A DNA stretch of 64,000 nucleotides from the NCBI GenBank assembly GCA_016200485.1, contig JACQEP010000016.1:139067-203066 (forward strand). Direction: 5' to 3'. The stretch is from Gammaproteobacteria bacterium. GTDB taxonomy: Bacteria; Pseudomonadota; Gammaproteobacteria; Tenderiales; Tenderiaceae. Position 1 is the stretch's first letter; each line of letters opens with the position of its first letter. The notes under the pieces were generated by a model. The model was not told the origin of the DNA, did not search any database, and saw nothing but the letters and a program-made list of their open reading frames with translations. Shown here one piece after another: positions 7,278 through 58,481 of the stretch. Position numbers and translations under genes: made by a program.

Positions 7278-7304
7278 TAGGGGTGATTTATGAATCGCCC
7301 CTAA
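7278..7304. repeat. REP-like palindrome copy (GTAGGGGTGATTTATGAATCGCCCCTAA, imperfect)
   Basis: Member of the GGGGCGATTCATGAATCGCCCC family, immediately 3' of the dioxygenase gene. Confidence 0.7.
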
Positions 7305-10838: not shown

Positions 10839-10943
10839 GGCAACGCGAGATGACCCGACGATAGACTAGGCTATCATTAGAACATCCCGCCTGACAAAGC
10901 TCAATGGAACTAGCCGTGACAGCCCGCATCGTGTTTAATACCT

Positions 10944-12107
10944 TTGATGCCCAAGCATTTAGCCTCCAAATATCGTTTCCCCTGGCGGGAAGGCAATCAG
11001 TTTCGACTCCTGGTCGACGGTGATCGCTTTTATCCGGCAATGCTGGAGGCTATCACGATCGCAAAACATTCCATTATCCTGGAGATGTATCTGGTACGCC
11101 CCGGCAGCGTCTTTGACCGTTTCACGACGGCTTTGCAGCTGGCCGCCAAACGCGGCGTGCAGGTATTTATTTTGTTTGACGATTACGGCTCACGCGAACT
11201 GCGCCAGATCGACCGCCAACAACTGGCGCATCCCAATATTCGTCTTACCTGGTATAACCCGTTTCACTATGGCCAACTGCGCCGCGCTTTGCTGCGTGAT
11301 CACCGCAAGCTACTAGTCGTCGACAATCGCATTGCTTATGTCGGCGGCGCCGGGTTGACCGATGATTTTATCCAACCCCATCACCGCTGGCATGACATGA
11401 TGATTGAAATCCAGGGGCCCTGCGTCTCGGACTGGCAATCACTGTTCCGCGACGCGTGGCCAGCGGCATCGCCACCGGAATCGGCAGCGCCAATTCCGGT
11501 GGCGATGCCGATTGATGCTGCTATTGGTGCGCAACTGGGCCGTGTCACTTTATCGCAACTTTCCAATCGTCAGGAAATACAGCGCTCATTAGTGCACCGG
11601 ATACGGAGCGCCGAACATTGGGTCTGGCTTAGCACCGCCTATTTCGTTCCTTCCTGGAAATTGCGGCGGGCACTGAGTTCGGCCGCCAAACGTGGTATCG
11701 ATGTGCGCCTGGTGCTGCCCGGCCCGCACACAGATCATCCTGCCATTCGTCATGCCGGAAGGCGTTTTTATTATGGACTGCTACGGCGCGGCGTCCGGAT
11801 TTATGAATATCTTCCGCGGTTTAATCACACCAAACTTTATCTCTGCGATCACTGGATCTCGATCGGTTCCAGCAACGTCGATCGCTGGAATTTATTCTGG
11901 AATCTTGAAGCCAATCAGGAAGTAGATGATCAAACACTCAGCGAAGAGGCGCGGAATCACTTCAACGAAGACTTTACGCATTGCCTGGAAATCACGCTTG
12001 AACACTGGCAGCGCCGCGCCTGGCATCGCCGGTTACTGGAACAATTCTGGGGCTGGGTAGATGCGCGCTTGAATCAATTAAGCCAGCGCTGGCGGCGTAA
12101 ATCTTGA
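10944..12107 (+). CDS. phospholipase D-family protein (cardiolipin synthase ClsB-like), two HKD motifs
   Basis: 387 aa, HRKLLVVDNRIAYVGG and HTKLYLCDHWISIGSSNVD. Confidence 0.7.
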   Translation: MMPKHLASKYRFPWREGNQFRLLVDGDRFYPAMLEAITIAKHSIILEMYLVRPGSVFDRFTTALQLAAKRGVQVFILFDDYGSRELRQIDRQQLAHPNIRLTWYNPFHYGQLRRALLRDHRKLLVVDNRIAYVGGAGLTDDFIQPHHRWHDMMIEIQGPCVSDWQSLFRDAWPAASPPESAAPIPVAMPIDAAIGAQLGRVTLSQLSNRQEIQRSLVHRIRSAEHWVWLSTAYFVPSWKLRRALSSAAKRGIDVRLVLPGPHTDHPAIRHAGRRFYYGLLRRGVRIYEYLPRFNHTKLYLCDHWISIGSSNVDRWNLFWNLEANQEVDDQTLSEEARNHFNEDFTHCLEITLEHWQRRAWHRRLLEQFWGWVDARLNQLSQRWRRKS

Positions 12108-12138
12108 ACGTAGGGGCGGGTTTAAAACCCGCCCGCAA

Positions 12139-12522
12139 TTACCAACGCGTTGACCAATCGATTGAAAGGTCGGATTGAAGGCCAATCTTTAAGGATGAAC
12201 CTGAATCAACAGGATATTCCAGGGTCAGGTGTTTGCCATCCCGCGCCATGCCCGCGCGCGGCAGGTCGGAGGCTGAAGCCCTCAATTCAAGGCGTGGCTT
12301 CTCTGCAAACGAGGCCTTTTCTGATTCGATGACCACATCAGGGATGATTTCCTGCAATCGCTCACGCGGCAACTGTAATGCAATCGATTTGGATTTTTGA
12401 ACGAATGTCTTGGCCGGTACTGCCGCAGCGACCTGTTTTTTTTCCACTGCCACCGCACCCCCGGCCAACCCCAGCAGGGCGACCCCGACGACTGTTGTAA
12501 CTTGCCGTTGCAGTGTTTTCAT
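12139..12522 (-). CDS. secreted hypothetical protein (signal peptide)
   Basis: 127 aa, N-terminal signal peptide VVGVALLGLAGGAVA. Confidence 0.45.
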   Translation of the reverse strand: MKTLQRQVTTVVGVALLGLAGGAVAVEKKQVAAAVPAKTFVQKSKSIALQLPRERLQEIIPDVVIESEKASFAEKPRLELRASASDLPRAGMARDGKHLTLEYPVDSGSSLKIGLQSDLSIDWSTRW

Positions 12523-12660
12523 AACCTACCCTCTCTACCCGTGTAACCCGCCGAGTGGTCTTGGGCTTTGCCCAGACCGGTATTTTTGGTTCTTGGCTTG
12601 ACTGCCCCCACGACAGTGCCACACTCCCCGACAAGGATGACTATGCTACTCATAAGGGTT

Positions 12661-12879
12661 TTAAATGTCTACTCGTTTGTGGTAATCGCGGTTCATCCAG
12701 CACTGGGGCAGGACCTCTCCCGAGGGGAACGTCAATCCGGCCTTGGTAAATCTTTGAGTTTCCTGCATTTCTTCACCGGCATGGAAGCGCCCCTTAATTT
12801 GATCGACGCAGGGATCGATCAGCGACGCCACGTCCATGACCTCAACCATGTCTCCGGTCTTCTTAGCTTTTAGATACAT
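12661..12879 (-). CDS. small hypothetical protein
   Basis: 72-aa ORF with no recognisable motif. Confidence 0.25.
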   Translation of the reverse strand: MYLKAKKTGDMVEVMDVASLIDPCVDQIKGRFHAGEEMQETQRFTKAGLTFPSGEVLPQCWMNRDYHKRVDI

Positions 12880-13081
12880 AGCTCACCTCGGTACCTTTAT
12901 ACTGAACTATAATTTTAATATAGCCTCTTATCTAGTAATTAACAGGGCGAATAAAGAGTGACGCGCAGTGGCTGAAAGATTGACAGTTTTTTAACTGGCC
13001 TGCATCAAGTTCCACCCTGGTTCATCCGATAGCTTCAGAGTACCTAACCATGAGTATCACCCATTGTATTTGGAGGGAAAA

Positions 13082-14221
13082 ATGAGTTCTTTACGCCGGT
13101 TACAGGAGTTCGGCCAAAGCGTTTGGTACGACAATATCCAGCGCAGCATGTTGGGCCCTGGCAAGGAATTGGCACTACTGATTGAGGAGGATGGGCTGCG
13201 GGGAGTCACCTCCAACCCTTCGATTTTCGAGAAGGCCATCAACGGCAGCAAGGATTACGACGACGCCCTGCTGCGCCACGTCAAAGGTGGTCTCAGCGAT
13301 AGCCGCGATCTGTTCTTTGCCCTGGCCATCGAGGATATCCAGGGGGCCGCCGACCAGCTGCTCCCGGTCTATCGCAAGACCAACGGCCTGGACGGTTATG
13401 TCAGCCTGGAGGTCTCGCCGGACCTGGCCTACAACGCCAGCGCCACCATCGCCGAGGCCAAGCGCCTGGCGGAGCGCGTCAATCGCCCCAACTTAATGAT
13501 CAAGGTACCTTCGACCCAGGAAGGCATTGAGGCCGTCGAGGTGTTGACCGCCGCCGGGATCAACATCAATGCCACTCTTCTCTTCGGAGTGGATCGCTAT
13601 GAAGAGATCGCCCGCGCCTATCTGCGTGGTCTGCGTCAACGTCTGAGCCTGGGCCAGCCGGTGACCAAGATCGCCTCGGTCGCCAGCTTCTTCGTCAGCC
13701 GGGTGGATACCCTGGTCGACAGCTTGTTGGAACAAAAAGCCGCTAAAGGCAACGACCGAAGCCGCTGCGACCAATTAATGAACAAGGTGGCCATCGCCAA
13801 TGCCAAAGTCGCCTACGCCCTGTTCCAGCACCTCTACCGTCACGAATTTAGCGACCTGGAAGCAGCAGGCGCCCGGCCACAACGCCTGCTCTGGGCCAGC
13901 ACCGGCACCAAAAACCCGAACCTCAGCGACGTGGCCTATATCGACAACTTGATCGGGGCGGATACGGTCAATACTATCCCGCCCGCCACCTACAAGGCCT
14001 TTAAGGACCACGGCACGGTGGCCGCCACCCTCGAACAGGGGCTGGATGCTGCCCCCAAATTAATGGCTGAACTGAAACAAGTTGGCATTGACTTCAACGC
14101 CGTTACCCGGCAATTGGAAGACGAGGGTGTCAAGACTTTCGACAAGGCCTTCCAAACCCTGTTGCTGGCGATCAACAGCAAGGTGCAGGCACTCACCCCC
14201 GGCAGCCGGGTACGGGCATAA
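13082..14221 (+). CDS. tal: transaldolase
   Basis: Transaldolase-like throughout (SVWYDNIQRSML...GVTSNPSIFEKAI...). Start chosen at the second ATG (13082), which has a GGAGGG Shine-Dalgarno. Confidence 0.8.
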   Translation: MSSLRRLQEFGQSVWYDNIQRSMLGPGKELALLIEEDGLRGVTSNPSIFEKAINGSKDYDDALLRHVKGGLSDSRDLFFALAIEDIQGAADQLLPVYRKTNGLDGYVSLEVSPDLAYNASATIAEAKRLAERVNRPNLMIKVPSTQEGIEAVEVLTAAGININATLLFGVDRYEEIARAYLRGLRQRLSLGQPVTKIASVASFFVSRVDTLVDSLLEQKAAKGNDRSRCDQLMNKVAIANAKVAYALFQHLYRHEFSDLEAAGARPQRLLWASTGTKNPNLSDVAYIDNLIGADTVNTIPPATYKAFKDHGTVAATLEQGLDAAPKLMAELKQVGIDFNAVTRQLEDEGVKTFDKAFQTLLLAINSKVQALTPGSRVRA

Positions 14222-14247
14222 TTCAACGCTTCGCAAATCAATAAACC

Positions 14248-14278
14248 GTGTGCGCCGCAAGGCGCGCACGTGTTTTGG
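14248..14278 (+). terminator. Rho-independent terminator after tal
   Basis: GC-rich hairpin GTGCGCC-GCAA-GGCGCGCAC followed by GTGTTTTGG. Confidence 0.55.
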
Positions 14279-14305
14279 CGTTAGAATATCGTTTTTATCT
14301 GCGCC

Positions 14306-15175
14306 ATGGATATCTGGAACACTATTGATCGTGCTATCAGCACCGCCTGCGGAACACCGTTTCAGGCACAACAACGCCTAGCATTAGGCGGCGGCTGTAT
14401 CAATCACAGCTATAAACTCAGTACTGGCCACCAGCATTTCTTTGTTAAGCTCAACGCTGCCGCCAAGCTAGAGATGTTTATCGCAGAGGCCGAGGGTTTG
14501 CAGGCCCTTGCCGATAGCGCCACCATCCGTGTCCCCACCGTTATTTGTTACGGCATTGCCAATGACCAGGCATATCTGGCGCTTGAATACCTGCCGCTTA
14601 CCGCGCGCGGCGATCAGGCGCAGTTAGGACAGGCGCTCGCCCGACTCCACCGCTGCACGGGTCCACGCTACGGCTGGCACCGCAGCAATACCATTGGCGC
14701 CACGCCACAATACAATACTTATGCGGACAGCTGGCTTGATTTTTGGCGTGAGCAACGTTTGGGATTTCAATTAGCCCTCGCTGCTGAAAATGGCTTTCGC
14801 GGCAGTTTACAAGCGAAAGGCCGGGAATTATTAAATGGACTGGATTTACTGCTGGGCACGCACCAACCGGCGCCATCGCTCGTCCATGGCGACTTGTGGT
14901 CCGGCAATTACGCATTTACTACGGAGGGCTCACCCGTCATTTTTGACCCGGCTGTGCATTATGGCGACCGCGAAACCGACTTGGCGATGACCGAGCTATT
15001 TGGCGGTTTCAGCAATGAGTTTTATCGCGCCTATCAAGCAGAGTACCCGCTGCCTGCAGGCTATGAAACGCGTAAAATACTCTACAACCTGTATCATGTG
15101 CTCAATCATCTACATCTATTCGGCGGCGGTTATCTGCGCCAGGCCGAAACCATGATTGACGAATTGTTACGTTAA
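14306..15175 (+). CDS. fructosamine/ketosamine-3-kinase family protein
   Basis: 289 aa, ...VHGDLWSGNYAF...DPAVHYGDRETDLAM resembles the FN3K/YniA family. Confidence 0.75.
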   Translation: MDIWNTIDRAISTACGTPFQAQQRLALGGGCINHSYKLSTGHQHFFVKLNAAAKLEMFIAEAEGLQALADSATIRVPTVICYGIANDQAYLALEYLPLTARGDQAQLGQALARLHRCTGPRYGWHRSNTIGATPQYNTYADSWLDFWREQRLGFQLALAAENGFRGSLQAKGRELLNGLDLLLGTHQPAPSLVHGDLWSGNYAFTTEGSPVIFDPAVHYGDRETDLAMTELFGGFSNEFYRAYQAEYPLPAGYETRKILYNLYHVLNHLHLFGGGYLRQAETMIDELLR

Positions 15176-15533: not shown

Positions 15534-15536
15534 CTG

Positions 15537-15562
15537 CAGGGGCGATTCATGAATCGCCCCTG
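15537..15562. repeat. REP-like perfect palindrome CAGGGGCGATTCATGAATCGCCCCTG
   Basis: Sits between convergent genes. Confidence 0.8.
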
Positions 15563-15567
15563 CATAA

Positions 15568-16398
15568 TCACAAACTCCCTTTGAACGTTAACTGCAACAA
15601 CTTGCCATGTGTCTTATCCGCCAGCGATTGATACTCAACCTTGGTTCCGGGGTCTGATTGCCCAATAGGAATCGTAAAAACCGGTGCCGGAATATTCAGA
15701 TAATAGATACGATCGTCCGACGGCTCATCGCCAAGCAGGACATAAGCACCGGGTTTGGGGGCATTTTTCGCCGCGCGCACGAAAGCATCACCGATAGTTT
15801 CATTATTACCCATAAATGGCGCGCCCTTCATGAAACTGTCCAGAATCTCACCCATGGTGCCCTGATAAGTATCGGCATTGCCATCGGCGAACCAGGTCAG
15901 CGCCGAAAGCTCCTTGCCTGAACGAATCACAATCACTCTTAACAACGGCACTAGAAACGTCGCCGCACCGTGCATTGAACCCGTGGCATCGATCACCAAA
16001 TGGATATCCTTGCCCGGAATATCTTTCAATCCTCTGATAAAAACATCAAAGTCACGCCGCCCCGTAGCTGAATCCAGGCCCACGGATTGCAGCACTTTCT
16101 CGATCTGGGCATCCGTACCCATGCCCGCCATTTCGTCCAGCTCGCCATAAAGGCGGCTGTTATCGTTTTCCTTTTGCTTCAGCTCTTCCTTGAGCTCGGC
16201 CAGCTCCTTCTTCATGCGCGGAAAATTCACCTTTTCATTGACGCGCGATGTAATCATGACCACCACTAACACGAAAATAAAAGTACCGAGCATCATCAAC
16301 ACCATGTCGATGAAGATACGCTCATATCCTCCGCTTTCCGTGGTTCGACGTCGGCGTTTCATTAACGTATCCGGAACACTTCCAGCAAACGCACCCAC
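15568..16398 (-). CDS. ExbD/TolR/MotB-like TM anchor, coiled coil, and vWA domain protein
   Basis: 276 aa. The N-terminal TM FIDMVLMMLGTFIFVLVVVM is ExbD-like. A coiled coil follows (KKELAELKEELKQKEN). The C-terminal vWA domain has a MIDAS-like IHLVIDATGSM and TIGDAFVRAA...YVLLGDEPSDD. Confidence 0.6.
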   Translation of the reverse strand: MGAFAGSVPDTLMKRRRRTTESGGYERIFIDMVLMMLGTFIFVLVVVMITSRVNEKVNFPRMKKELAELKEELKQKENDNSRLYGELDEMAGMGTDAQIEKVLQSVGLDSATGRRDFDVFIRGLKDIPGKDIHLVIDATGSMHGAATFLVPLLRVIVIRSGKELSALTWFADGNADTYQGTMGEILDSFMKGAPFMGNNETIGDAFVRAAKNAPKPGAYVLLGDEPSDDRIYYLNIPAPVFTIPIGQSDPGTKVEYQSLADKTHGKLLQLTFKGSL

Positions 16399-17348
16399 CA
16401 GGGACGCTTCAAATGCAACAAGAGACGCATTTCTTCGCGCAACAATTCGCAGTAGGCTCGATGTTCCTTGATCAAGGCTTCGAGTGGCTTACCACCCTCG
16501 GGCGAGTTATCGCTAAGACTGCGAATTTCGCTACGAAAATCGTGCAAGGTTTGCCGCGAGCGATCAAAAGATTCGTGCAGACGCTGAATGTTGACATCCA
16601 GTGCGCGCACCTCTTCATTCAGCAGCCGCACATCCCGCTCCACCGTGCGCACATAATCCGCCGAGCAATACACCAGGCAGATGCGCATCAAATTATCGTG
16701 CAGGCCTTCGACACCATGCTGAGTGATCTGGGCGAAAATGCGCAACAATACGCCACCCAATACCGCCCCCAGCAAGGTCGCATAAAAGGCCGTACCCATG
16801 CCGCTCATGGCATGCTGCAGGCCGGACAACATCATGTCCTGATCCTGACCCAGGGCTTCGAGCGAACTGCTCAATCCGGTCAGCGTCATGGTCAACCCCA
16901 TTACGGTACCGATCAATCCCAGCGTAATCAGCACCGTACCCACTACCTCAATCGAATGACTGATACGCTCGAATGCCGCCAGCTCGACATGGAGCAATGT
17001 TTCCACATCCACGTCACCCTTGGCCTCTACCGTAAATTTTATCGATTTGAAAAAGCGGTCAGCCGCGCGTTTGCCAGAGTGAATGATAATCGCATTCAAA
17101 CCACCTTCGCGCGCCGAATACTCCAACTGAGAAGACCGGACAGCCTCTTTGGTAATCAGCATCGTCAAGGCAAAACTACCGATGATCCCAAGCAGAAAGA
17201 GCCCGGAAATCAGCCAGGTAATATGGCTGGCGTCACGCTCCATGAACGACCAGACCTCGGTGTCCCGGTACAGGGTGAGATACACGACCAGCGCCGTGCT
17301 GGCCCAAATGGTCCACAAAATTAAGGTACGGTAAGGTGTCTGATTCAT
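16362..17348 (-). CDS. MotA/TolQ/ExbB proton-channel family protein with extended coiled-coil C-tail
   Basis: 328 aa, signature ITLGLIGTVMGLTMTL, ~100-aa cytoplasmic tail. Overlaps the downstream gene by 37 bp. Confidence 0.65.
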   Translation of the reverse strand: MNQTPYRTLILWTIWASTALVVYLTLYRDTEVWSFMERDASHITWLISGLFLLGIIGSFALTMLITKEAVRSSQLEYSAREGGLNAIIIHSGKRAADRFFKSIKFTVEAKGDVDVETLLHVELAAFERISHSIEVVGTVLITLGLIGTVMGLTMTLTGLSSSLEALGQDQDMMLSGLQHAMSGMGTAFYATLLGAVLGGVLLRIFAQITQHGVEGLHDNLMRICLVYCSADYVRTVERDVRLLNEEVRALDVNIQRLHESFDRSRQTLHDFRSEIRSLSDNSPEGGKPLEALIKEHRAYCELLREEMRLLLHLKRPWWVRLLEVFRIR

Positions 17349-17474: not shown

Positions 17475-17496
17475 GGGGCGATTCATGAATCGTCCT
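17475..17496. repeat. REP-like palindrome copy GGGGGCGATTCATGAATCGTCC (imperfect)
   Basis: Lies between the sensor kinase and the MotA-like gene. Confidence 0.65.
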
Positions 17497-17533: not shown

Positions 17534-20500
17534 TCAACTGACGGCAGAATGTTCCAGCACCCGGGTTAACGCCTCATTAAGATCATTGGTCACCACCGGT
17601 TTGAGCATGTATTCTCGAATACCAATTTGCCTGGCCTCTTCCGGACCCACCCGCTGGCTATAACCGGTACACATAATCACTGGCAGCTCGGGCCGCATAT
17701 GCAGCAACTCCCGCGCCAGCATATCGCCCGTCATTTCCGGCATATTTTGATCGGTAATGACCAGATCAAAATCCTTGGGATTTTTTTTGAAAAGGGACAA
17801 TGCCTCACGCGGCTTATTGCAGACCGTGACATGATAGCCCAGGCGCTCAAGCATCCGCTGCATCACCGACGTCTGCAGCTCTTCATCATCGACAATGAGC
17901 AGTCTTTCTTTTCCGGCACGCATCGATTTCGCTTTCTCACTCGCCTTATCCATGGTCTTGGCCGTCACCCTCGGCAGATACACCTCAAAGCGGGAACCTT
18001 TCCCTGGTTCACTAGACACGGCAATCGTACCTTTGGCCGCCGTCACAATCCCATGCACTGCCGCCAACCCCATGCCAGAACCTTGCCCCACCGGCTTGGT
18101 GGTAAAGAAGGGATCAAAAATCCTGGACAACACGTTGGGAGAAATACCACTGCCATTATCCGCAATCAGCAAACGCACGTAATCGCCCGCAGCCAGGTCA
18201 TTGACCTCTTTTTCCTGCAACACAATTTCATCCAGCTGAATATTGATCACACCGGGTCGCTCGCCAATGGCATGACTGGCGTTCACGATCAAATTCATTG
18301 CCACTTGCTGAAACTGACCTGACTCCAACATGACTTCTGCTGCAGGCGCATTCAAACTCGCTTTAATTTCGATACTACTGGGGATCGCGGACCGCAGCAA
18401 AGCAATCACTTCTTGAGTAACCGTTTGCGGGATCACGTTAGTCATCTCTGCTTCGGCTTGGCGGCTAAATGCCAAAATACGTGCCACCAGATTTTTAGCC
18501 CTGTTCGCCGCTGTAATTATTTGCGTCAAATTCTGTTTGGCGACCCCATCGGCGGGCACTTCATCTCGCGTCAACTCCGCAAAGCCCAAAATAGCCGACA
18601 GAATATTGTTAAAATCATGCGCAATTCCACCCGCCAGGGTGCCTATGGCCTCCAACTTCTGCGTTTGGCGCTCACGCTGCTCTTCAACCGCCTCACCGGT
18701 AACATCGCGCACACCGACGATGTAATTTACTATATTGCCCGCATGATCCTTCACTGGTGAGATAGACAATTCCTCACTGTACTCCGACCCACCGCGGCGT
18801 TTTACCTGACGCCGATATTTAAATCGCTCATCTTCACCATAGCTTCTCGCTGCCCCCTGCGCCATCCCCGTTAAGTCAACACCAAACATCGACTCAACGT
18901 CATTGCCAATCACAGCCGCAGGAGTTCGGCCCGAAATTGCATAATAGGCAGGATTGGCATATTCCACACCGCCGATGGTATCCAAGATCAAAACCCCATC
19001 CAATGACTGATCGATCGCCATCACCAGCATGCGTGCTCGCAGCTCAGAATTCTTGCGCGCTGTGACATCCGAAAACACCCCACGATAGCTGACCAGTCCG
19101 TCATCATCATCGAAAACGGGTACCATATTGCACATCAGGCAAATATCTTTATTGCGCCTGCCAACCACCCAGAATTCTTCGTTAAGCAACTTCGATCGAT
19201 TCAACCCTGCGCCCTGGAACAATTTTCTGACTCGCGTCTCGTCATCCGGAACAATCATTTCCAACATCGATTTTCCAATCAGCTCGTTTGCATCATAACC
19301 CAGAATATCCGCCACCTTATCCGAGCAATATATAAATTTGAGGCTGGAATCAAACTCCCAAACCGCGTTCGACACACTATCCACAATCGACCGCAGGCGC
19401 TCCTCTGATTCCATACGCTCCAGCTCTGCCGCTGCGCGCATCGCGCAAATCTGCAACATGGACTCGGCGACCTCTACGCTTGGGGTCGCACTATGACTCC
19501 ACATCGAAATCATGCCAACAACCACGCCATCGACACGAACTATCGGCGTAGTCACATGAGATCTCACCTTAATGACAACCACCGGCTCACCCATCGGCCT
19601 TGGCAGCACCACGTCAAGACCCTGCTCACTCACCGCCACATTTCGTGCCAGACTATGCGCGCCCCCGGTAACGCCGTGGGTAAAATTATCGCCAATGCTT
19701 CCTTCGTTCCACACGGCAAGACTGCGCAATTTATCTCCTTTTGTGGATAACCGCGAAATAGCCACATAATCCATCTCCAGCCCCATCGCCAGCTGCCGTG
19801 CAAGCTCCGCAAAGAAATTTGAACCTTTACCCGCGGGAACGATTTTCGCAATTGCCCGCAACCCCGCCTCAACTCGCCCTCGCTTGTCCTGCTCCAATTT
19901 CAGAGAAATAGAATCCGCCATCGAAGTCGCAAAATTTTGTTCGTCCAGGGCCCAGCCGTATGATGCACCCGATTGCTCACATACAACCATACCTGCAACA
20001 TGCCCCGCCATCCTGATCGCGGAAATCAATACACTACTTGTCTCTTCGTGCAACAATCCATTTTTCTTTATCGCAGCACCCCGTTCATCCTTATCAAGAT
20101 CCACAATCGCCAACACACCACCACGATCCAAGCAATCAATCGCGCCCTTGACGTCATCTAGAAATACATCCTCACGGCTATTATGCTGATGGCCAACATG
20201 ATCGTACGAATCCATGCATGTATAGCCAATCCCCTTGCCATTTGCGATCCACACGCCTACTCGCGATACTTGCAGCGCGGCCGCAGCACCCTCGCTGTAA
20301 TATTTAATCACGCTTGCAAGTGATGTTGAATCAGAAATCTCGATTTTTGCCAAATCACGCAATACCCGATTTTGCCGGCCCAGCCGTTGCTCGGCTGTTT
20401 GTAATGCCTTCTCGTATTCTTTACGTGCCGTAATATCCGTTCTTATCGCAATATATTGCGTATTTTCACCACGTTCATTCTTATATGGCACAATGGTCGA

Positions 20501-21415
20501 ATAGACCCAATAAAGCTGCCCGCCTTTTGCGCGATTCAATACCTGACCATTCCATACTTCACCCTTCGATAGGGTGCGCCACATATGGGCAAAGAACTCT
20601 TTGGGATGATAACCAGAGTTAATTATTCGATGCGTATTTCCCAGTAGCTCTTCACGGCTATACCCACTAATTTCACAAAATTTGTCGTTGACATGGGTAA
20701 TTACCCCGTTCACATCGGTAACGGCCACGATTGAATGCTGATCCAAGGCATATTTCTGCGCTTCCGCCGCACGCAGAACTTCTTCCAGCTGCCTTGCATT
20801 CTGATTATCGTATTGCTGGTATTTTCGCATCGTCCACAGCAACATACCCAGTATCATCACGAACCCTGTCACTGTGACTATTAATGCACTTTCCAGCCGA
20901 TCATGCGTGGCCTCCGCTACTGCATCGACATCATCGGAAACGTGCGCGGCACGCGCTACCAGAATTTCCGAGATATCGCGCAAATCCTTGGCGATCTTAC
21001 TCTGCAGATTCGCGTCACCAGCCGCCTTCTTATATTCCGAGACCAGCGAAGGCAGCTGCATCAGCTCATTTGAATACAACACCAACTCCAGCCGTATATG
21101 CTCCTCCTTGACCGGATCAATCTCGCGGCCATGATATTGCCCCCCCGACACCAGCAAGGTAATGACACGGATGGCCTCATCGGTTTCTGCACGTGCCGAT
21201 TCTAATTTATCTGAAGCCCGTTCCTTGGCAAGAACAGCATCCCCCAGGATCTCCCGGACATTGATTACTTTCAGATAAAACTCTCTGCCGATCCTGATGA
21301 CATCTTCATTGTCTTTGTCCTGCTCCAGAAAATTTAAGGCCGCCACGATGAAGCCCAGCATCAAGGCCACGGCCACCCCCAGCAGGTAATTTGTTTTAAC
21401 GATCCCTTGATTCAT
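17534..21415 (-). CDS. multi-sensor hybrid histidine kinase/response regulator (TM, PAS and GAF domains, HisKA-HATPase, C-terminal receiver)
   Basis: 1293 aa. H-box LEAIGTLAGGIAHDFNN, G-boxes, and a C-terminal REC domain (LLIVDDEEL...DLVITDQNMPEMTG). Confidence 0.8.
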   Translation of the reverse strand: MNQGIVKTNYLLGVAVALMLGFIVAALNFLEQDKDNEDVIRIGREFYLKVINVREILGDAVLAKERASDKLESARAETDEAIRVITLLVSGGQYHGREIDPVKEEHIRLELVLYSNELMQLPSLVSEYKKAAGDANLQSKIAKDLRDISEILVARAAHVSDDVDAVAEATHDRLESALIVTVTGFVMILGMLLWTMRKYQQYDNQNARQLEEVLRAAEAQKYALDQHSIVAVTDVNGVITHVNDKFCEISGYSREELLGNTHRIINSGYHPKEFFAHMWRTLSKGEVWNGQVLNRAKGGQLYWVYSTIVPYKNERGENTQYIAIRTDITARKEYEKALQTAEQRLGRQNRVLRDLAKIEISDSTSLASVIKYYSEGAAAALQVSRVGVWIANGKGIGYTCMDSYDHVGHQHNSREDVFLDDVKGAIDCLDRGGVLAIVDLDKDERGAAIKKNGLLHEETSSVLISAIRMAGHVAGMVVCEQSGASYGWALDEQNFATSMADSISLKLEQDKRGRVEAGLRAIAKIVPAGKGSNFFAELARQLAMGLEMDYVAISRLSTKGDKLRSLAVWNEGSIGDNFTHGVTGGAHSLARNVAVSEQGLDVVLPRPMGEPVVVIKVRSHVTTPIVRVDGVVVGMISMWSHSATPSVEVAESMLQICAMRAAAELERMESEERLRSIVDSVSNAVWEFDSSLKFIYCSDKVADILGYDANELIGKSMLEMIVPDDETRVRKLFQGAGLNRSKLLNEEFWVVGRRNKDICLMCNMVPVFDDDDGLVSYRGVFSDVTARKNSELRARMLVMAIDQSLDGVLILDTIGGVEYANPAYYAISGRTPAAVIGNDVESMFGVDLTGMAQGAARSYGEDERFKYRRQVKRRGGSEYSEELSISPVKDHAGNIVNYIVGVRDVTGEAVEEQRERQTQKLEAIGTLAGGIAHDFNNILSAILGFAELTRDEVPADGVAKQNLTQIITAANRAKNLVARILAFSRQAEAEMTNVIPQTVTQEVIALLRSAIPSSIEIKASLNAPAAEVMLESGQFQQVAMNLIVNASHAIGERPGVINIQLDEIVLQEKEVNDLAAGDYVRLLIADNGSGISPNVLSRIFDPFFTTKPVGQGSGMGLAAVHGIVTAAKGTIAVSSEPGKGSRFEVYLPRVTAKTMDKASEKAKSMRAGKERLLIVDDEELQTSVMQRMLERLGYHVTVCNKPREALSLFKKNPKDFDLVITDQNMPEMTGDMLARELLHMRPELPVIMCTGYSQRVGPEEARQIGIREYMLKPVVTNDLNEALTRVLEHSAVS

Positions 21416-21699
21416 AATGCGATGTTTTATGTCCGGATTTTTGATGTCTCCTTATTTTTACGGTCTAAATTCATTAAACTTAAGCTGAACCGGCTTTTTT
21501 TGGGCATCCCTTTGAATTCAAAAAATTTTTAACCTATTGATATAAATATATTTTTATCTAAAAATTTATATGTTGCCCCTTTTTGCTCAATTATTATGTT
21601 TAAGCTCGATTTATAATCTCTACGTCCGGCGGCCCGAGGTGCAGCCCCTGCCCCCGCTCTCGCGTATAATCACCCTCTTTACTTTAGCGGATAAGCCTC

Positions 21700-22500
21700 G
21701 TGCGCAGAAACAAGCCCCAAACCCCGTCTCGCCATCCACGTAGCCCCACACCTATCCGCCGTGAAGTTAAATACTATGGCCAGGCGGCGTGTTGGGCGCT
21801 CTGGCAAAACCGTGCCCGCGATATCATTCGCATTTATGTCACTGACGAGACCATGGGCTTATTTGGACCCGCGTTGAAGTGGGTCGCCGCCCAGCGCAAG
21901 GCCTATCACATCGTGACCAATGACGATATCGAACGCTTGACCGAATCGATTCATCATCAAGGCGTATGCATTCTTGCCTACGAAGCCAGCGCCTTGGATT
22001 TCTCCGATTTAGTCAAGTTCATCAAGGCCGACGGACGGGCGCAGATGATCGTTTATCTGGATGGGGTTGAGAATCCTCATAATCTGGGCGCCATTATTCG
22101 CACCTGTGCCCACTTTGGCATTCGTTTCATTGTCGGTCCGGAAAAGGCGCTGCCACGTTTATCGTCCTCTGCCTGCCGCGTCGCCGAAGGTGGTGCGGAA
22201 AAGGTTGCACTCTGTTATTTGCAGAACCCAGCCAAGCAACTTAAAGAATTTCAGCAACTCGAATTTAAACTCTGCGCGACAGCCGTTGGCAAGGGAAAAT
22301 CGCTTTATCGCCATCATTTCCCTGGCCGGACATTGCTTATATTGGGTGCCGAGGGGGAAGGTGTTTCGCGCGCTACGCTTGCCAGCGCTGAAACCACGTT
22401 ATGCATTCCAGGCAGCGGTGACGTTGAAAGTTTAAACGTTTCGGTCGCCTTTGGTGTGATTGCAGGCGAGTTTTATCGTCAGCAACATCTTGGCGAATAA
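21700..22500 (+). CDS. TrmH/SpoU-family RNA 2'-O-methyltransferase
   Basis: GTG start. LDGVENPHNLGAIIRTCAHFG...LILGAEGEGVS...ESLNVSVAFGV are SPOUT motifs. Confidence 0.7.
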   Translation: MRRNKPQTPSRHPRSPTPIRREVKYYGQAACWALWQNRARDIIRIYVTDETMGLFGPALKWVAAQRKAYHIVTNDDIERLTESIHHQGVCILAYEASALDFSDLVKFIKADGRAQMIVYLDGVENPHNLGAIIRTCAHFGIRFIVGPEKALPRLSSSACRVAEGGAEKVALCYLQNPAKQLKEFQQLEFKLCATAVGKGKSLYRHHFPGRTLLILGAEGEGVSRATLASAETTLCIPGSGDVESLNVSVAFGVIAGEFYRQQHLGE

Positions 22501-24639
22501 TCAGCGCGCCAGCGAGGGACGTGCCCGTAATGTCGCCGCCTGCGCCTTTTTACTGAACACTATAGCCATCGGCGATTCCACCACCGGCCATTGCCCCTTG
22601 GCGATATTCGTTGGCTCGGCACCATTAAATACCAGAAAACTATATTTACCATAGTGCGGCAACTTGCGCGCCAATCCCGGCACTGCCGCCGCCTGACGTG
22701 TCGCCAACCAGGCGATCGCGTGCGTTGAGTTCGCCTTTGCCCTGGTCGTCAACACGATGCTGTGATCATTCAGATCATATGTGCCTTCAGTCATGGTCAG
22801 CGAATTGCCTTGAGTGATCACCCCCTGCCCTGACAATAACTCGTGCATTTGTGTGGCGAAACGATTCTCCGTCCCCAACAGCCATACCGCCCGATCGCGG
22901 GGCAAGGTGTTAATTTCGTTATCGCGACGTACCTGGATTTCAGAATTTTCCTGGCGCCAGACATCAATCAACGATTGAAACGCCGTCATCATTTCCGGGC
23001 TGGCCTTTGCTGGCAGCAGCACCAATATTTTCTCGGCACCGAATATCTGAGACAGGGCTGCCGGGATTTCAGCGCGACTCACGCGCCGAAAGACATCAAA
23101 CTCCGGATCAACATCCAGCCGCAGCGGCTCGGCTGGCAGATCAAGTGCGAACGATATGATTTTAGTTTTCATCTCGATCACGGATTGCCATGCCTGCGCC
23201 TGCCCGGCCAAGGTAACCGCCACCGGCACCTGTAATGCAAATGCTTCGTCTTTTTGAGTTTGCTGCAGCTCACCCTGAATGCGCCACCTTGTGCCATGTC
23301 GCTGTCGTATCACCTTGCTCAACGCCAGCGCCGGCGCCCCACTACGCATTGTCCATTGCCTGAAGAATTCTGCCTGCTGTTTACCGCTTACCTCGGAAAA
23401 AATCTGTGCGAGATCGCTAAAGCTTGCCGCCTTGAATTGATAACGCCGGTAAAGTTGGCGCAACCCTTCAATAAAGACATCATCCCCAAGCTGTTGGCGC
23501 AGCATATGAAATAGCATTTGCGATTTGCCATACCCCACGGCTTCACTGCTGGAGCCATGGCGCGCGGTAAAAGCTGTCAGCGGAAAATCTTTATTAGTTG
23601 AGACATAGTCAGAATAACCCTGGAGAATATCGCGCCGGTAATTAGTCGCATTACCATTCTGTTCTCTAATGAGATGATCGGCGAGATAGGAGGTCAACCC
23701 TTCCGACCAGTTGCCTTGCCGGTAATCAACGTAAACGCCGTTACCCCACCAGTTATGCAAAATCTCATGCGGATATGAGGTATGCAAAATAAACGGCATT
23801 CGAATCACCTTCGGCCCCAACAAAGTGAATGACGGCATGCCGTAACCTGTCTCCCAGAAATTCTCCACCACGGCAAACTTGGCATAGGGATACGGGCCGA
23901 TCAATTTACTGTACATCTCTATGTACTGCGCTGTGATGTCCAGATATTTTTTGGCCAGTGATTCATCGTTCTGGCGTAGAAATACCATTGCCTCAACATC
24001 GCTCGCTGATTTGTTGAATTCAAAGAATGGAGCGGCAATGAGATATATATCATCCTGGGGATTGGATTCACGCCAAGTAACCTGCTGTTGCCCGTCGGCA
24101 GTTGTCACTTGCTCACGACGCCCCTGACTGACCACTGTCCATGCTGATGGCACAGAAGCTTGTAGCTTAAAAGATACCAGCGCACCTTCGACAAGGGGAT
24201 ACCAACCCGCATTGGCAGCAAGAAATACTCCATCAGCAGATATCAATCCGGCAGGCTCTTCTTGATCCGAACCGGCAAGGCTTTCGATTTGGCCGCTATA
24301 TTTAAGCGTTACTTCTTTGTTTGCGGCGGGAATTGATATTTTGTATTTGCGTAATGCGAGCGCGCCATGTACATGCTTAATGTCCAACGGCTGAATATTA
24401 AACTCAGACTCAAGTTTCAGCGCGGCATTCAAATAGAACTCGATCTCAACCTTGTCCTTAGACTCTTGCGGCAGGTGAATCGTGTCCACAACGCTAATCG
24501 CATGCGATTCTGGAGCAAAGATTACTTTAAGATCGTGAGCAAAAGGTCGTGGCCAATTATCGGTAGCATAAGATACTTCAGTGGCAAGGGCGACGATTAA
24601 TGCCGTAATCAATATTCGCATTTCGCCCCCCCCTGTCAA
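22501..24639 (-). CDS. M1-family zinc metallopeptidase (aminopeptidase N-like), secreted
   Basis: 712 aa, signal peptide, HEILHNWWG...NWSEGLTSY gives HExxH plus a distal Glu. Confidence 0.75.
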   Translation of the reverse strand: MTGGGEMRILITALIVALATEVSYATDNWPRPFAHDLKVIFAPESHAISVVDTIHLPQESKDKVEIEFYLNAALKLESEFNIQPLDIKHVHGALALRKYKISIPAANKEVTLKYSGQIESLAGSDQEEPAGLISADGVFLAANAGWYPLVEGALVSFKLQASVPSAWTVVSQGRREQVTTADGQQQVTWRESNPQDDIYLIAAPFFEFNKSASDVEAMVFLRQNDESLAKKYLDITAQYIEMYSKLIGPYPYAKFAVVENFWETGYGMPSFTLLGPKVIRMPFILHTSYPHEILHNWWGNGVYVDYRQGNWSEGLTSYLADHLIREQNGNATNYRRDILQGYSDYVSTNKDFPLTAFTARHGSSSEAVGYGKSQMLFHMLRQQLGDDVFIEGLRQLYRRYQFKAASFSDLAQIFSEVSGKQQAEFFRQWTMRSGAPALALSKVIRQRHGTRWRIQGELQQTQKDEAFALQVPVAVTLAGQAQAWQSVIEMKTKIISFALDLPAEPLRLDVDPEFDVFRRVSRAEIPAALSQIFGAEKILVLLPAKASPEMMTAFQSLIDVWRQENSEIQVRRDNEINTLPRDRAVWLLGTENRFATQMHELLSGQGVITQGNSLTMTEGTYDLNDHSIVLTTRAKANSTHAIAWLATRQAAAVPGLARKLPHYGKYSFLVFNGAEPTNIAKGQWPVVESPMAIVFSKKAQAATLRARPSLAR

Positions 24640-24654
24640 AACGCTTGTTGTCGT

Positions 24655-26727
24655 TTAGTCGAGCTGTACTTTCAATGACAAAAAGGCTGAGCGCGGATTT
24701 AGATTGCGGTAGGCGAACCGATTAGGGTCAAAATAACGATTGGGATCGGCTCCACTGCGGAGCAGTTCCATTTCCTCGTATGGCCCGAATATATTTCGCA
24801 TTGCCAGCGTCAGCTCAGTTTCATGTCCGAACATCCTGGTTGCTTGGCCAAGGGTTAGATCAAGTCGTTGCACCGGATCCCTGACGTCCGTAGACTCCCA
24901 TCCCTGCAGCTTATCGGTGAAGTAGAAGCCAGCGCTTGCTTTCCACTCGTGATTCAAATGATGCATCAACAATAGACTTAGATTATGTTGCGGTGCAGCA
25001 GCATTATAATCCGCCTTCGGGCCCGAAAAATATATCACCGTATGGTCAACATCTGCGTAGGCGTAGCCAAGATGTAATGAATTGTTTTCAGATAATTTGG
25101 TTCTAAATTCAATTTCAAGGCCATTTATGTAAAATGCATCAAGATTCTCATAACGTTCAACTTCATGATCGACGTTATCCGCCGGATAGGGACGAGATAT
25201 AAGTCGAATTAAATCGCGCACCCTTTCTTGATACAGCTTAATGTCAAAATTTGCGTCCCCAGATGCGCCGTTATAGCCAAGCTCGTAAGCGGTAATGTGT
25301 TCCGGTCTTGTTTGCTGCGTCCCCACCCAGCTCACACTGTTCAGAACCGGACCAGCTCCATGATTAGTCGTAGCATGAATGCCATACTCAGCGGCGTACT
25401 CAAACATCGAAGGTGTTCTGATGGCCTGTGAAGCCGTGAAACGCAGGCTATGCCCTGGCGCCACGGTATAAATCATACCGGCGCGAGGAGAAAAATGTGT
25501 GCCGGTGGTGCTGTAATCTTCAGCAAACAACCCTGCATTGACGCTTAGCGGCCCTTTAACATCCCATTCCGCACTCACAAACGCATCTTTGAGGAAATTA
25601 TCCAGCTCCTTTCCTTTCAGCAAATTTTCCGCGCCCCAGACACGATCCTCTCGTATCCCGCCACCCCATACCAACTGAAAATCAGGTGTCAGGCGCACAT
25701 TTTGTTGCAGTTCGAGATCAAAACGCTGGGTTTTGCGACCAAAGTCTACCAGTGTCTGGTCAACCGTAAATGGCCCTACCGAGAATCCACCAATAGTATA
25801 AGTTTCGTTGTTTCGTTGATAAATGTGATACAGCTGAATCGACAAACTGTTGTCGGCTGCCAATTTCCTTTCCCAACGCAGTTGCTGGTGGTGAGTCAAT
25901 AATTGTTTTTCACGGGGCACATTCAATACGCTGGAATAACTATTGATAACACCCCGTACGCCATCACTTACTCCTAGATCGACCATAATCGCGTCATTGG
26001 CATCAATCGCATAATCACCACGAAAGCCAGCGATTTGTGTTCTTTTGTAATCCCTTCTGACAGGCAAGCCATCGTCGTGGATATAGGCTGCGTTGACGCG
26101 ATAGTCCAGCTTGCCAAGACTGCTGCCGTGCCGGACAAACCCCTCGCGCACACCCTCATCACCTGCGTTCAGCTTGACCGAAGTTCCCCGATCCAGCTGT
26201 GCATGGCGGGTAGTAATACTGATGACGCCGAAGAAAGAATTGGCACCGTAGCTTGCCGAATTGGGGCCACGGACTACTTCAATTTTAACAATATCGTCGA
26301 TCGTGATCGGCAGTTCTGCCCACGGCACTCCGCCGACCGCTGTGACATAGACAGATCTGCCATCGATCAGCACCTGCATGCGGCGCGCATACCGATCCAA
26401 CGCCATGTGGTAACTGACAGAAGGCGTGTGGCCGTCGAAATAACCCACCTGAAACCCCGGTACCAGACGGAATAATTCCGGGATTTCACGCGCGCCACTG
26501 GCCTCGATCATGTCGTGATCAATAATGGTAACCGCAACCGGTGAATTGGTGACAGGCTGCACCAGACGTGTCACTGAGCTAACAACAGGTACATCACCGA
26601 GATACATTTCCTCAGTTGCGGGAGGTATCTCGGTCGCTTCGGCGCCCATCGCCGCCATCGAAAACAAGCTTATCCCCGACACTAATATACAGCGACCCCA
26701 TTCGCGTTCAAGCAACGCCACCGGCAT
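24655..26727 (-). CDS. TonB-dependent outer-membrane receptor
   Basis: 690 aa, signal peptide, plug region, beta-barrel-like periodicity. Adjacent to the M1 peptidase. Confidence 0.65.
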   Translation of the reverse strand: MPVALLEREWGRCILVSGISLFSMAAMGAEATEIPPATEEMYLGDVPVVSSVTRLVQPVTNSPVAVTIIDHDMIEASGAREIPELFRLVPGFQVGYFDGHTPSVSYHMALDRYARRMQVLIDGRSVYVTAVGGVPWAELPITIDDIVKIEVVRGPNSASYGANSFFGVISITTRHAQLDRGTSVKLNAGDEGVREGFVRHGSSLGKLDYRVNAAYIHDDGLPVRRDYKRTQIAGFRGDYAIDANDAIMVDLGVSDGVRGVINSYSSVLNVPREKQLLTHHQQLRWERKLAADNSLSIQLYHIYQRNNETYTIGGFSVGPFTVDQTLVDFGRKTQRFDLELQQNVRLTPDFQLVWGGGIREDRVWGAENLLKGKELDNFLKDAFVSAEWDVKGPLSVNAGLFAEDYSTTGTHFSPRAGMIYTVAPGHSLRFTASQAIRTPSMFEYAAEYGIHATTNHGAGPVLNSVSWVGTQQTRPEHITAYELGYNGASGDANFDIKLYQERVRDLIRLISRPYPADNVDHEVERYENLDAFYINGLEIEFRTKLSENNSLHLGYAYADVDHTVIYFSGPKADYNAAAPQHNLSLLLMHHLNHEWKASAGFYFTDKLQGWESTDVRDPVQRLDLTLGQATRMFGHETELTLAMRNIFGPYEEMELLRSGADPNRYFDPNRFAYRNLNPRSAFLSLKVQLD

Positions 26728-36682: not shown

Positions 36683-36706
36683 TAGGGGCGATTCACGAAT
36701 CGCCCA
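36683..36706. repeat. REP-like palindrome copy TAGGGGCGATTCACGAATCGCCCA
   Basis: Lies at the 3' end of the WGR gene. Confidence 0.7.
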
Positions 36707-53656: not shown

Positions 53657-53684
53657 TAGGGGCGATTCATGAATCGCCCCTACG
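53657..53684. repeat. REP-like perfect 28-bp palindrome GTAGGGGCGATTCATGAATCGCCCCTAC
   Basis: Lies between the malic enzyme and MFS genes. Confidence 0.8.
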
Positions 53685-57823: not shown

Positions 57824-57989
57824 CATACTGCTCTGACAATTAACCCTAATTTGAAGAACACAAGTTTTTCAACGCGCCTAAGACGTAATGGCAGAGCGCC
57901 AATAGGCGAAGCCGTATTGCGCCGGATGGAAGCGCAACGCGTTTGTGAAAACTTAAACTACCGTAGCTAAGACGCTACTGGCCCAAAAG

Positions 57990-58448: not shown

Positions 58449-58481
58449 TCCAACATTCCAACATTAATCTCCCATTGCACT
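58449..58481. repeat. 33-bp direct repeat, copy 1 (TCCAACATTCCAACATTAATCTCCCATTGCACT)
   Basis: 30 of 33 positions match 60036-60068. Lies just past the 3' end of the corC-like gene. Confidence 0.75.

Follow-up and report, generated by a model that had tools for sequence, protein, structure and literature searches.

A two-gene MotA/ExbB-vWA module of uncultured Gammaproteobacteria, a candidate variant of a predicted class of ion-driven motors

Two adjacent genes in the window (the whole stretch of 64,000 nt analysed here, from a member of the Tenderiaceae) encode a membrane subunit of the MotA/ExbB superfamily and a single-helix membrane protein that carries a coiled coil and a predicted vWA domain. 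The two proteins, here called A and B, probably form a self-contained 5:2 ion-driven motor with a vWA head and a housekeeping role in the envelope. Known 5:2 ion-driven motors power flagella, gliding, the Ton/Tol functions of the envelope and Zorya defence.

An architecture of this kind has already been described computationally (PMC12204202, 2025), although no system of the kind has been characterised experimentally. In that description a TolQ-like gene is accompanied, with no tolR or exbD, by a gene for a trans-pore helix joined to a vWA domain (TPH-vWA). The helix is TolR/ExbD-like with a conserved Asp and lacks the SHLS motif of TonB/TolA, and the protein is the predicted dimeric partner in a 5:2 motor (PMC12204202). 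Most often, though not always, two heterologous TPH-vWA genes lie next to each other, and the reference proteins of the class are from Idiomarina loihiensis (PMC12204202). A preceding sequence-only reading of the window had been aware of no characterised system with a vWA output; this is true of experimental work, but the architecture itself is the one predicted in 2025. The MotAB diversity paper makes no mention of vWA, and no Tenderia locus tags were found in the literature.

Features of the locus are listed below, with the grounds for each.

15535-15564, no strand: perfect 30-nt REP-like palindrome, between the convergent stops of B and a DUF1820 gene
15568-16362, minus strand: gene B, 264 aa from ATG 16362, predicted dimeric axle/anchor subunit (junction sequence, homologues, A upstream)
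15598-16011, minus strand: B residues 118-255, predicted compact vWA domain of ~140 aa (MIDAS residues, fold)
16021-16233, minus strand: B residues 44-114, predicted periplasmic coiled-coil stalk (44-80), then a helical linker (AF2, periodicity)
16234-16323, minus strand: B residues 14-43, single N-in TM helix, the putative trans-pore helix (hydropathy, N-terminal charge, invariant columns)
16362-17348, minus strand: gene A, 328 aa, MotA/ExbB/TolQ-family membrane subunit, predicted pentameric ring (Pfam, Foldseek, homologues)
16365-16718, minus strand: A residues 211-328, cytoplasmic helical tail (AF2 helices, periodicity, conservation)
16722-16964, minus strand: A residues 129-209, channel core of TM3, a conserved 25-aa periplasmic loop and TM4 (invariant alignment columns)
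17476-17495, no strand: second copy of the REP-like palindrome, in the gap between a kinase gene and A

The MotA/ExbB-type subunit

Gene A was recognised in the sequence-only reading as MotA/TolQ/ExbB-type from its GLIGTVMG signature, which falls at residues 144-151. Pfam MotA_ExbB (PF01618) matches residues 116-216 at 35.2 bits, against a cut-off (gathering score) of 22.9 bits, and is present in all the listed homologues of A; 532 homologues were found, each of ~330 aa. The top Foldseek matches in the PDB are ExbB, TolQ, MotA, PomA and ZorA chains, with probability 0.95-1.0 and TM-scores, normalised to the target, of up to 0.62 (model pLDDT 78), and the best PDB sequence-profile matches, to residues 73-161, are MotA chains at E about 1e-3. 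By profile and by fold, A is a member of the MotA/ExbB superfamily, as had been proposed.

Four hydrophobic segments are present (8-27, 42-68, 129-159 and 184-209). The channel core holds the GLIGTVMG signature, which is invariant, and invariant Thr residues in TM3 (T142, T148) and TM4 (T186, T191), with mean column conservation of 0.86 in TM3, 0.79 in the loop and 0.94 in TM4. The tail that follows had been called a coiled coil, and residues 211-328 are indeed helical with a 3.5-residue hydrophobic periodicity (AF2 helices at 170-232, 236-280 and 289-313). It carries a CxxxC pair, of which C224 is near-invariant and C228 invariant, an RDVRxLNxE motif and a C-terminal PWW. A 303-aa antisense ORF at 16413-17324 (plus strand) was treated as spurious, as it lies on the opposite strand of a conserved gene.

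The vWA-bearing subunit

Both ORFs of the sequence-only reading were found where it had placed them, but the 37-bp overlap that it reported arose because it began B at the first GTG (16398). Homologues of B are ~260 aa long and all start with MKxRRR, so the start is ATG 16362; the A/B junction is then TAATG, an overlap of 1 nt onto the A stop. The motifs FIDMVLMMLGTFIFVLVVV, DATGSM, ETIGDAF and LLGDEPSDD were found in B.

The N-terminus of B has a charge of +4 and residues 14-43 form its only hydrophobic segment, indicating an N-in helix. Within it F17 and D19 (codon 16306-16308) are invariant across 46 diverse sequences, and the helix is the most conserved part of the protein (0.82), which agrees with the earlier description of an ExbD/TolR/MotB-like start. 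There is no SHLS motif and no His in residues 14-43. The ExbD/TolR domain PF02472, the MotB plug PF13677 and the OmpA-like PF00691 are all absent from B at E<=1, and the N-terminal matches that do appear, to ZorB1 and MotB-like proteins, are weak. From its sequence, the membrane part of B is expected to work like that of MotB, ExbD, TolR or ZorB, with B itself outside those families. Nor did profile searches place B in an ordinary BatA/BatB-type or TolR family, the assignment that the sequence-only reading had held would count against it.

Beyond the membrane, the AF2 model of B has a continuous helix at residues 13-79 followed by helices at 83-93 and 99-114. The stalk region shows 3.5-residue (heptad) periodicity and a near-invariant P48; its conservation is lower (0.52), as would be typical of a spacer. 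The C-terminal domain is modelled as a vWA fold with a complete MIDAS of the DxTxS variant (D125-A-T127-G-S129, T189 and D212), placed relative to strands 119-125 and 206-211 of the model. D125, S129, T189 and D212 are invariant, and T127 is kept in at least 90% of the B sequences. The vWA assignment draws on this single-chain model, whose confidence is moderate (pLDDT 73.7), and on an hhalign comparison with a second family described below, in place of a direct VWA sequence profile. No VWA match to B was obtained from Pfam or NCBIfam even at E<=1, or from a profile search of PDB sequences, and Pfam, NCBIfam and PADLOC returned nothing for B beyond coiled-coil noise and the weak N-terminal ZorB matches. 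The model thus bears out, at its own level of confidence, the suggestion that a coiled coil and a vWA domain replace the usual periplasmic domain.

Pairing and distribution

The pairing is obligate. A lies directly upstream of B and in the same direction in every one of the 81 loci having upstream sequence, the gap between them is -8 to +69 nt in 67 of 70 measured junctions, and the identities of A and B co-vary (rho 0.74). The window has one B gene, as does every other locus of this family (family 1), and no tolR, exbD or motB gene adjoins the pair in the surveyed neighbourhoods.

Family 1 is very narrow, being found in 162 species genomes, all of uncultured Gammaproteobacteria. Ca. Tenderia electrophaga carries it as the Tel_04585 pair. 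An exhaustive HMM search of 1.84 billion representatives gave 29 matches, mostly fragments; ordinary vWA proteins are therefore beyond the reach of sequence search. Viral contigs, plasmids and phages gave no family-1 matches. The identity of B rises and falls with the identities of Mpl, Tal and DUF1820, core genes that flank the pair (rho 0.66-0.89), and base composition at the pair is normal. Family 1 appears to have been inherited vertically among housekeeping genes.

A second family of TM-coiled-coil-VWA proteins (family 2) is homologous to B (hhalign probability 98.4%, E 6e-15), and its MotA-like partner is homologous to A (99%, E 7e-18), with 39% identity over A residues 129-209. Family 2 itself reaches VWA_2 or VWA, below threshold or by precomputed annotation. 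Its A proteins are 252-261 aa and lack the tail, its B genes are paired (seen at locus L089), and its operons encode a PG_binding_1 protein. One host, Nitrosomonas nitrosa, is cultivable.

Matched by architecture and description, both families fit the TPH-vWA/TolQ-like class of PMC12204202, and we consider it fairly probable that the window's pair is a divergent variant of that predicted class of 5:2 motors. The window's pair shares with it the close linkage of the vWA gene to a tolQ/motA homologue, the absence of tolR, exbD and motB, and a trans-pore helix with the Asp (D19) and without SHLS. The window's family differs in its single B, whereas heterologous pairs are the main form in the paper and occur at L089; in a compact vWA domain (~140 aa) invisible to Pfam; in having no accessory operon; and in its limitation to one gammaproteobacterial clade with core-genome synteny. 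Relative to family 2, the window's A adds the 118-aa cytoplasmic coiled-coil tail with its Cys pair. With no such tail and with its B genes in pairs, family 2 may work by a mechanism that does not apply to the window's family.

Gene neighbourhood

ORFs were clustered from 86 loci, and context was counted over ~80 genomes or neighbourhoods. The pair is surrounded by housekeeping genes in four different synteny arrangements, with conserved positions between gltBD-hemE and FN3K-tal-mpl. The clustering revealed no conserved third gene, effector, ligand or partner beside the pair. Three clade-specific neighbours recur: a 288-aa protein (X), a 496-aa polytopic protein and a 148-aa lipoprotein, none with a Pfam or other informative match; X alone of these is in the window. 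The sequence-only reading had weighed against itself a core-genome location adjacent to known Tol/Exb components. The housekeeping synteny is there, but no tol-pal or TonB genes, nor flagellar genes, adjoin the pair in the surveyed neighbourhoods. Neither phage-defence islands nor a link with the neighbouring sensor kinase, the two associations that it had raised, is conserved in the ~80 neighbourhoods.

The palindrome GGGCGATTCATGAATCGCCC lies on both sides of the pair (15540-15559 and 17476-17495), which agrees with the REP bracketing reported earlier. However, further copies occur at 7281, 36686 and 53660, so that the window holds five where 0.01 would be expected. The palindrome is a REP-like element scattered through the window and not specific to the module, and we rejected the bracket as a signature of a mobile element. 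The copy downstream of B may serve as a terminator. Neither an Rfam nor a tRNA scan of the window gave any match.

Proposed mechanism and alternatives

In our preferred model, five A subunits with the MotA/ExbB/TolQ fold would encircle the trans-pore helices of two B subunits. Protons would enter between the conserved Thr residues of A TM3 and TM4 and be taken up at B Asp19, and this uptake would drive rotation of A relative to B. In the periplasm a dimeric coiled-coil stalk of ~6-10 nm would bear two compact vWA heads, whose MIDAS would bind, roughly at the height of the peptidoglycan layer, an acidic group of a ligand through a divalent cation. Such a setting is suggested by the fact that, among proteins without a TM helix, this vWA subtype has its closest relatives in LysM-vWA proteins, one of which bears a signal peptide, and by the PG_binding_1 protein of family-2 operons. 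The vWA head would replace the OmpA-like peptidoglycan-binding domain of MotB and ZorB. With B fixed by its head, the A ring would turn and its conserved helical tail would be the moving output. The motor would serve the cell envelope in a housekeeping capacity, in a single clade of uncultured Gammaproteobacteria that mostly oxidise sulfur or iron.

Features shared with the MotA-MotB and PomA-PomB stators are the four-TM topology of A and a B subunit anchored outside the membrane. Unlike those stators, the pair has no MotB plug or OmpA domain and no flagellar genes nearby, and the TM2-TM3 cytoplasmic domain of A is short, at ~60 aa, and lacks a torque-generating interface.

Domains of the vWA/MIDAS type are classic force-bearing adhesion modules, integrin I domains among them. 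This lends some weight to the view that the module is a Ton/Tol-like force transducer, an unlikely alternative in which the A ring stays effectively static, perhaps kept still by its conserved tail, while the B dimer turns and its MIDAS-bound vWA heads put tension on an outer-membrane or other envelope target. The same architecture has drawn an AF3-based proposal to this effect, with the vWA subunit as the rotating part that exerts a pull on the outer membrane (PMC12204202). The best structural matches of A are to ExbB-ExbD/TolQ-TolR (5sv0, E 8e-4; also 9ddm and 8odt), and the F-x-D motif of B resembles the TM helix of ExbD/TolR. However, A has four TM helices plus a tail, and the pair lacks both an ExbD-type periplasmic domain (no PF02472) and a TonB/TolA partner. 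The stalk of B is short and rigid, with ~40-70 helical residues or 6-10 nm, and has no Pro-rich or extensible domain like domain II of TonB/TolA. Since the peptidoglycan lies about 9 nm from the inner membrane (Zorya paper, PMC11946911), a stalk of this length would bring the vWA heads to the peptidoglycan and not to the outer membrane. No conserved outer-membrane partner was found in the surveyed neighbourhoods; a TonB-dependent receptor gene at 24655-26727 was rejected as a partner because it is unique to the window.

A rather improbable variant is a core-genome transmembrane signalling motor. Metal-dependent capture of a ligand by the vWA domain at the peptidoglycan would unlock proton flow. 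The short ZorA-like tail would then rotate, and through it the condition of the envelope would be signalled or restored; its conserved CxxxC pair may bind metal or have a redox function. If true, this would put the sensing logic of Zorya to use in housekeeping and not in defence.

We regard it as quite unlikely that the pair is no motor at all. In that case A would be a channel that has degenerated, or a scaffold, and B an adhesin or chaperone of BatA/BatB type whose periplasmic vWA domain is tied to the membrane, the two being co-transcribed by chance. The membrane Asp of B and its flanking motif are invariant, and the polar Thr residues are kept in the strongly conserved TM3 and TM4 of A. 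Adjacency in all loci, with junctions of the translational-coupling type, also argues against chance. B differs from BatA/BatB in having a single Asp-bearing TM helix and a MotA-like partner gene and in showing no sequence-profile match to them, and no MoxR, DUF58 or TPR genes of a Bat operon were found near the pair.

A Zorya-like anti-phage sensor, hinted at in the sequence-only reading, is very improbable. Here B would sense envelope perturbation and the rotating A tail would activate cytoplasmic effectors encoded elsewhere in the genome. Features in common with Zorya ZorA5B2 (PMC11946911) are a ring (predicted here) of MotA-like subunits that end in a cytoplasmic coiled coil, a B subunit whose N-terminal helix bears the Asp and which has no plug of the MotB type, and acidic residues in the periplasmic loop of A that face basic residues just past the TM helix of B. 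The best defence-library matches of A and B are likewise ZorA and ZorB (PADLOC ZorA1, 30 bits, 4.7e-8, and ZorB1, E 0.004; NCBIfam ZorA_2, 20.3 bits, E 2.4e-4), and one family-2 locus, next to a Shedu-type gene, is carried by a conjugative element. However, the matches of A cover the TM core only, and the ZorA_2 score is far below its cut-off of 100 bits. The tail of ZorA is about 500 aa and 70 nm long (PMC11946911) against 118 aa in A, and ZorB ends in an OmpA-like peptidoglycan-binding domain where B ends in vWA. Zorya needs ZorC/ZorD-type effectors and is found in defence contexts, whereas no zorC/D/E-like or other defence gene, zorF/zorG included, was found in ~80 neighbourhoods. Conserved housekeeping positions, normal composition, identity tracking core genes, and absence from viral contigs, plasmids and phages all point away from defence.

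Finally, the pair is most improbably an accessory input or output device of the 1293-aa multi-sensor PAS/GAF/HisKA/HATPase/REC hybrid kinase. As the sequence-only reading noted, this kinase is encoded directly upstream of A, and it is on the same strand, but it has this position in only 2 of ~80 genomes (the window and UBA5122). In the window a 185-nt gap carrying the REP element runs from the kinase stop to the A start, and the kinase gene belongs to a group with genes for a TonB-dependent receptor, an M1 peptidase and a SpoU methylase, which is an insertion when compared with locus L001, where the order is gltBD-hemE-X-A-B.

Significance

A new output domain for 5:2 motors would be another route from proton flow to mechanical work or signal. 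With a MIDAS-vWA B subunit, peptidoglycan anchoring would be swapped for a specific, metal-dependent and potentially force-sensitive protein contact. The form described here is the simplest found, with two genes, a single B and no accessory operon, and combines a vWA head with a ZorA-like tail. The family could therefore serve as a minimal system for structural work on a class so far only predicted. For annotation, about 260 'hypothetical proteins' would be B subunits missed by current profile libraries.

The paired genes

Gene A encodes a MotA/ExbB/TolQ-family channel subunit and gene B its partner, a TM-coiled-coil-vWA protein; both lie on the minus strand and are read in the same direction.

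16362-17348 (-), gene A, 328 aa, Pfam MotA_ExbB
16365-16718 (-), cytoplasmic tail of A, residues 211-328
15568-16362 (-), gene B, 264 aa from the ATG at 16362

The sequence-only reading began B at a GTG at 16398, which overlaps A by 37 bp. Homologues are about 260 aa long and all have an MKxRRR start, so we place the start at the ATG, leaving an overlap of 1 nt (TAATG).

A scores 35.2 bits against Pfam MotA_ExbB (cut-off 22.9 bits) and has four hydrophobic segments (8-27, 42-68, 129-159 and 184-209). The structures closest to its AF2 model (pLDDT 78) are ExbB, TolQ, MotA, PomA and ZorA chains, and the solved proteins nearest by sequence profile are flagellar MotA chains (E ~1e-3). Among 46 diverse homologues the GLIGTVMG core, T142, T148, T186 and T191 are invariant, and conservation peaks in TM3 (0.86), the 25-residue periplasmic loop (0.79) and TM4 (0.94). 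The tail is modeled as helices, with a hydrophobic period of 3.5 residues. It carries a CxxxC pair just below TM4 (C224 near-invariant, C228 invariant) and a partly conserved H296-x3-C300 in the returning helix, which could be a candidate metal or redox site.

B starts with a positively charged segment (+4) and has a single hydrophobic helix, residues 14-43, so the N-terminus should lie inside the cell and the remainder in the periplasm. This helix, with F17 and D19 invariant, is the best-conserved portion of B; after it come a near-invariant P48, a helix with heptad periodicity that runs to about residue 80, and a linker, also helical, as far as 114. The C-terminal domain gave no match in Pfam, NCBIfam or PDB-sequence profile searches, even at E<=1. 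The MIDAS positions (D125-x-T127-x-S129, T189 and D212) fall where they do in vWA domains, at the ends of strands beta-1 and beta-4; all are invariant except T127, which is nearly so. Because MIDAS-type residues occupy vWA positions and nearly all are invariant, the earlier call of a vWA domain with a MIDAS is correct, being confirmable at the structure level only.

Pairing and distribution

We compared 86 loci from metagenomes and GTDB species genomes. Each of the 81 loci with upstream sequence has A immediately before B on the same strand; the other five begin at a contig edge. The gap between the genes is -8 to +69 nt in 67 of 70 measured junctions, and the sequence identities of A and B co-vary (rho 0.74).

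The window's pair and its close homologues (family 1) are very narrow in distribution. A word-indexed search found 264 cluster representatives for B and 532 for A, and 162 of 185,579 GTDB species genomes were positive, all uncultured Gammaproteobacteria (Tenderia, Chromatiaceae, Thiotrichaceae and Ectothiorhodospiraceae labels) except one labelled Zetaproteobacteria; an exhaustive profile search gave only 29 matches among 1.84 billion representatives. One MAG, UBA5122, has two A-B pairs on separate contigs in different synteny arrangements (L019 and L028, ~60% and 59% identity to the window's B); the two may go back to an old duplication, or the bin may be mixed.

Genomic context

ORF clustering of the loci revealed four recurring arrangements around A-B, all of housekeeping genes, and no constant third gene beside the pair.

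Arrangement 1: gltB-gltD-hemE-X-A-B, then on the opposite strand DUF1820, fructosamine kinase, transaldolase, PLD and mpl
Arrangement 2: phosphoribulokinase, DUF2846 and Zn peptidase upstream of A-B
Arrangement 3: cytochrome c and oxidase genes upstream, a 496-aa polytopic protein downstream
Arrangement 4: a small lipoprotein gene adjoining A-B

The window has arrangement 1, interrupted by a block between X and A.

26937-27803 (-), X, conserved 288-aa protein without a Pfam match, adjoining hemE
17534-26727, block between X and A, comprising:
24655-26727, TonB-dependent receptor
22501-24639, M1-family peptidase
21700-22500 (+), SpoU RNA methylase
1293-aa hybrid histidine kinase, upstream of A

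X is a recurrent upstream neighbour of A-B in 13 loci (66% identity to the L017 copy), and its sequence suggests a putative Rossmann-type methyltransferase motif. Since X is followed directly by A in L001 and related loci, the block appears to have been inserted into a conserved gene order. The kinase, to which the pair had been linked, lies upstream of A in just one other genome.

The 64 kb contain five copies of a REP-like palindrome with core GGGCGATTCATGAATCGCCC, where chance predicts 0.01.

7281-7300, palindrome copy
15540-15559, palindrome copy (this one, as 15535-15564, is perfectly palindromic over 30 nt and separates two convergent genes)
17476-17495, palindrome copy
36686-36705, palindrome copy
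53660-53679, palindrome copy

Copies do flank the pair, as had been read from the sequence, but the element is dispersed through the window.

Identity of B to its window copy tracks the corresponding values for the neighbouring Mpl, transaldolase and DUF1820 (rho 0.66-0.89), and B is conserved about equally with them. GC and GC3 of the region are unremarkable, and family 1 had no match in the viral contigs, plasmids and phages searched. Housekeeping synteny, the identity correlation, normal composition, the lack of viral, plasmid or phage matches and the dispersed palindrome together point to a vertically inherited chromosomal module without sign of a defence island. The suggested Zorya-like conflict system gains no support from the housekeeping neighbours or from the empty viral, plasmid and phage searches.

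A Thiotrichaceae MAG (L003/L004/L027) has an Eco57I-type N6-methyltransferase and small ORFs (~10887-14755) between A-B and the fructosamine-kinase gene, and a phage-type integrase ~9 kb upstream; this insertion is a local island not common to other loci. Elsewhere in the window, the GC skew reverses near 56 kb, and two stretches, 56-58 kb and 60-62 kb, dip in GC content (0.45-0.49). Two features lie within 56000-62000.

57116-57823, PEP-CTERM-tagged protein
60329-61198, 289-aa ORF without a Pfam match

Relatives of the vWA head

The informative relatives were the weakest significant matches of the exhaustive profile search with B. Two proteins, P0267 and P0268, join a LysM peptidoglycan-binding domain to B's vWA subtype, sharing the DxTGSM and GDEPxDD motifs (DxTGSM ... 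GDEPGDDW), and one has a signal peptide. Secreted or periplasmic, they are the closest relatives of the B head without a motor-type TM helix.

A second family (family 2) was reached through a planctomycete fragment that combines a MotB-like helix, coiled coil and vWA. The B proteins of this family (~305-318 aa, some with Pfam VWA matches) are likewise encoded downstream of a MotA_ExbB gene. Profile-profile comparison between the families gave 98.4% (E 6e-15) for B and 99% (E 7e-18) for A, with 39% identity over TM3-TM4, which shows that both subunits are homologous. Unlike family-1 A, family-2 A has no tail. Family 2 is broader, and its operons have 5-8 genes, most of which match no family: a second, paralogous B gene often comes after B, then several unannotated genes, among them one for a PG_binding_1/Gly-zipper protein.

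L087, 7213-13812, family-2 locus of a tubeworm endosymbiont, downstream of a Pil-Chp chemosensory cluster
L089, 7172-12451, family-2 locus
L090, 7174-12048, family-2 locus
L091, 7412-15093, family-2 locus carried by a conjugative element that encodes a TrwC relaxase, coupling protein and integrase, with a Shedu-type SduA_C gene as neighbour

Proposed mechanism

The best-supported prediction is an A5B2 proton-driven motor with the B helix as axle, whose periplasmic end would be a coiled-coil stalk bearing two MIDAS vWA heads. We infer that E164, D169 and D171 in the A loop face R49, K51 and K52 just after the B helix, a pairing that would recall the ZorA Glu164-ZorB Arg49/Arg52 lock (PMC11946911). 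The stalk has ~40-70 helical residues (6-10 nm) and the peptidoglycan is ~9 nm from the inner membrane (PMC11946911), so the heads should sit near the peptidoglycan, short of the outer membrane. A published alternative, which is possible, has B rotating and pulling on the outer membrane. Given the stalk reach and the LysM-vWA relatives, we favour the vWA as an anchor in place of the OmpA-like domain of MotB/ZorB; with B anchored, the A ring and tail would be the moving part.

The original observation is confirmed once three points are corrected: where B starts and how far it overlaps A, the REP element being dispersed, and the kinase not being a conserved neighbour. A stator pair with a vWA-bearing B subunit is supported, and the conflict-system and kinase suggestions are unsupported. 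In the literature, this architecture exists so far as a prediction only. A 2025 computational paper (PMC12204202) reported TMH-tethered vWA genes, mostly heterologous pairs, that tightly co-occur with tolQ homologues without tolR/exbD; their products have a TolR/ExbD-like trans-pore helix with a conserved Asp, which AF3 models place inside the pentamer, and their function is unknown. Both A-B and family 2 fit this class, family 2 being likened to the paper's family by architecture, and family 1 is a minimal variant that has diverged and whose tail resembles that of ZorA.
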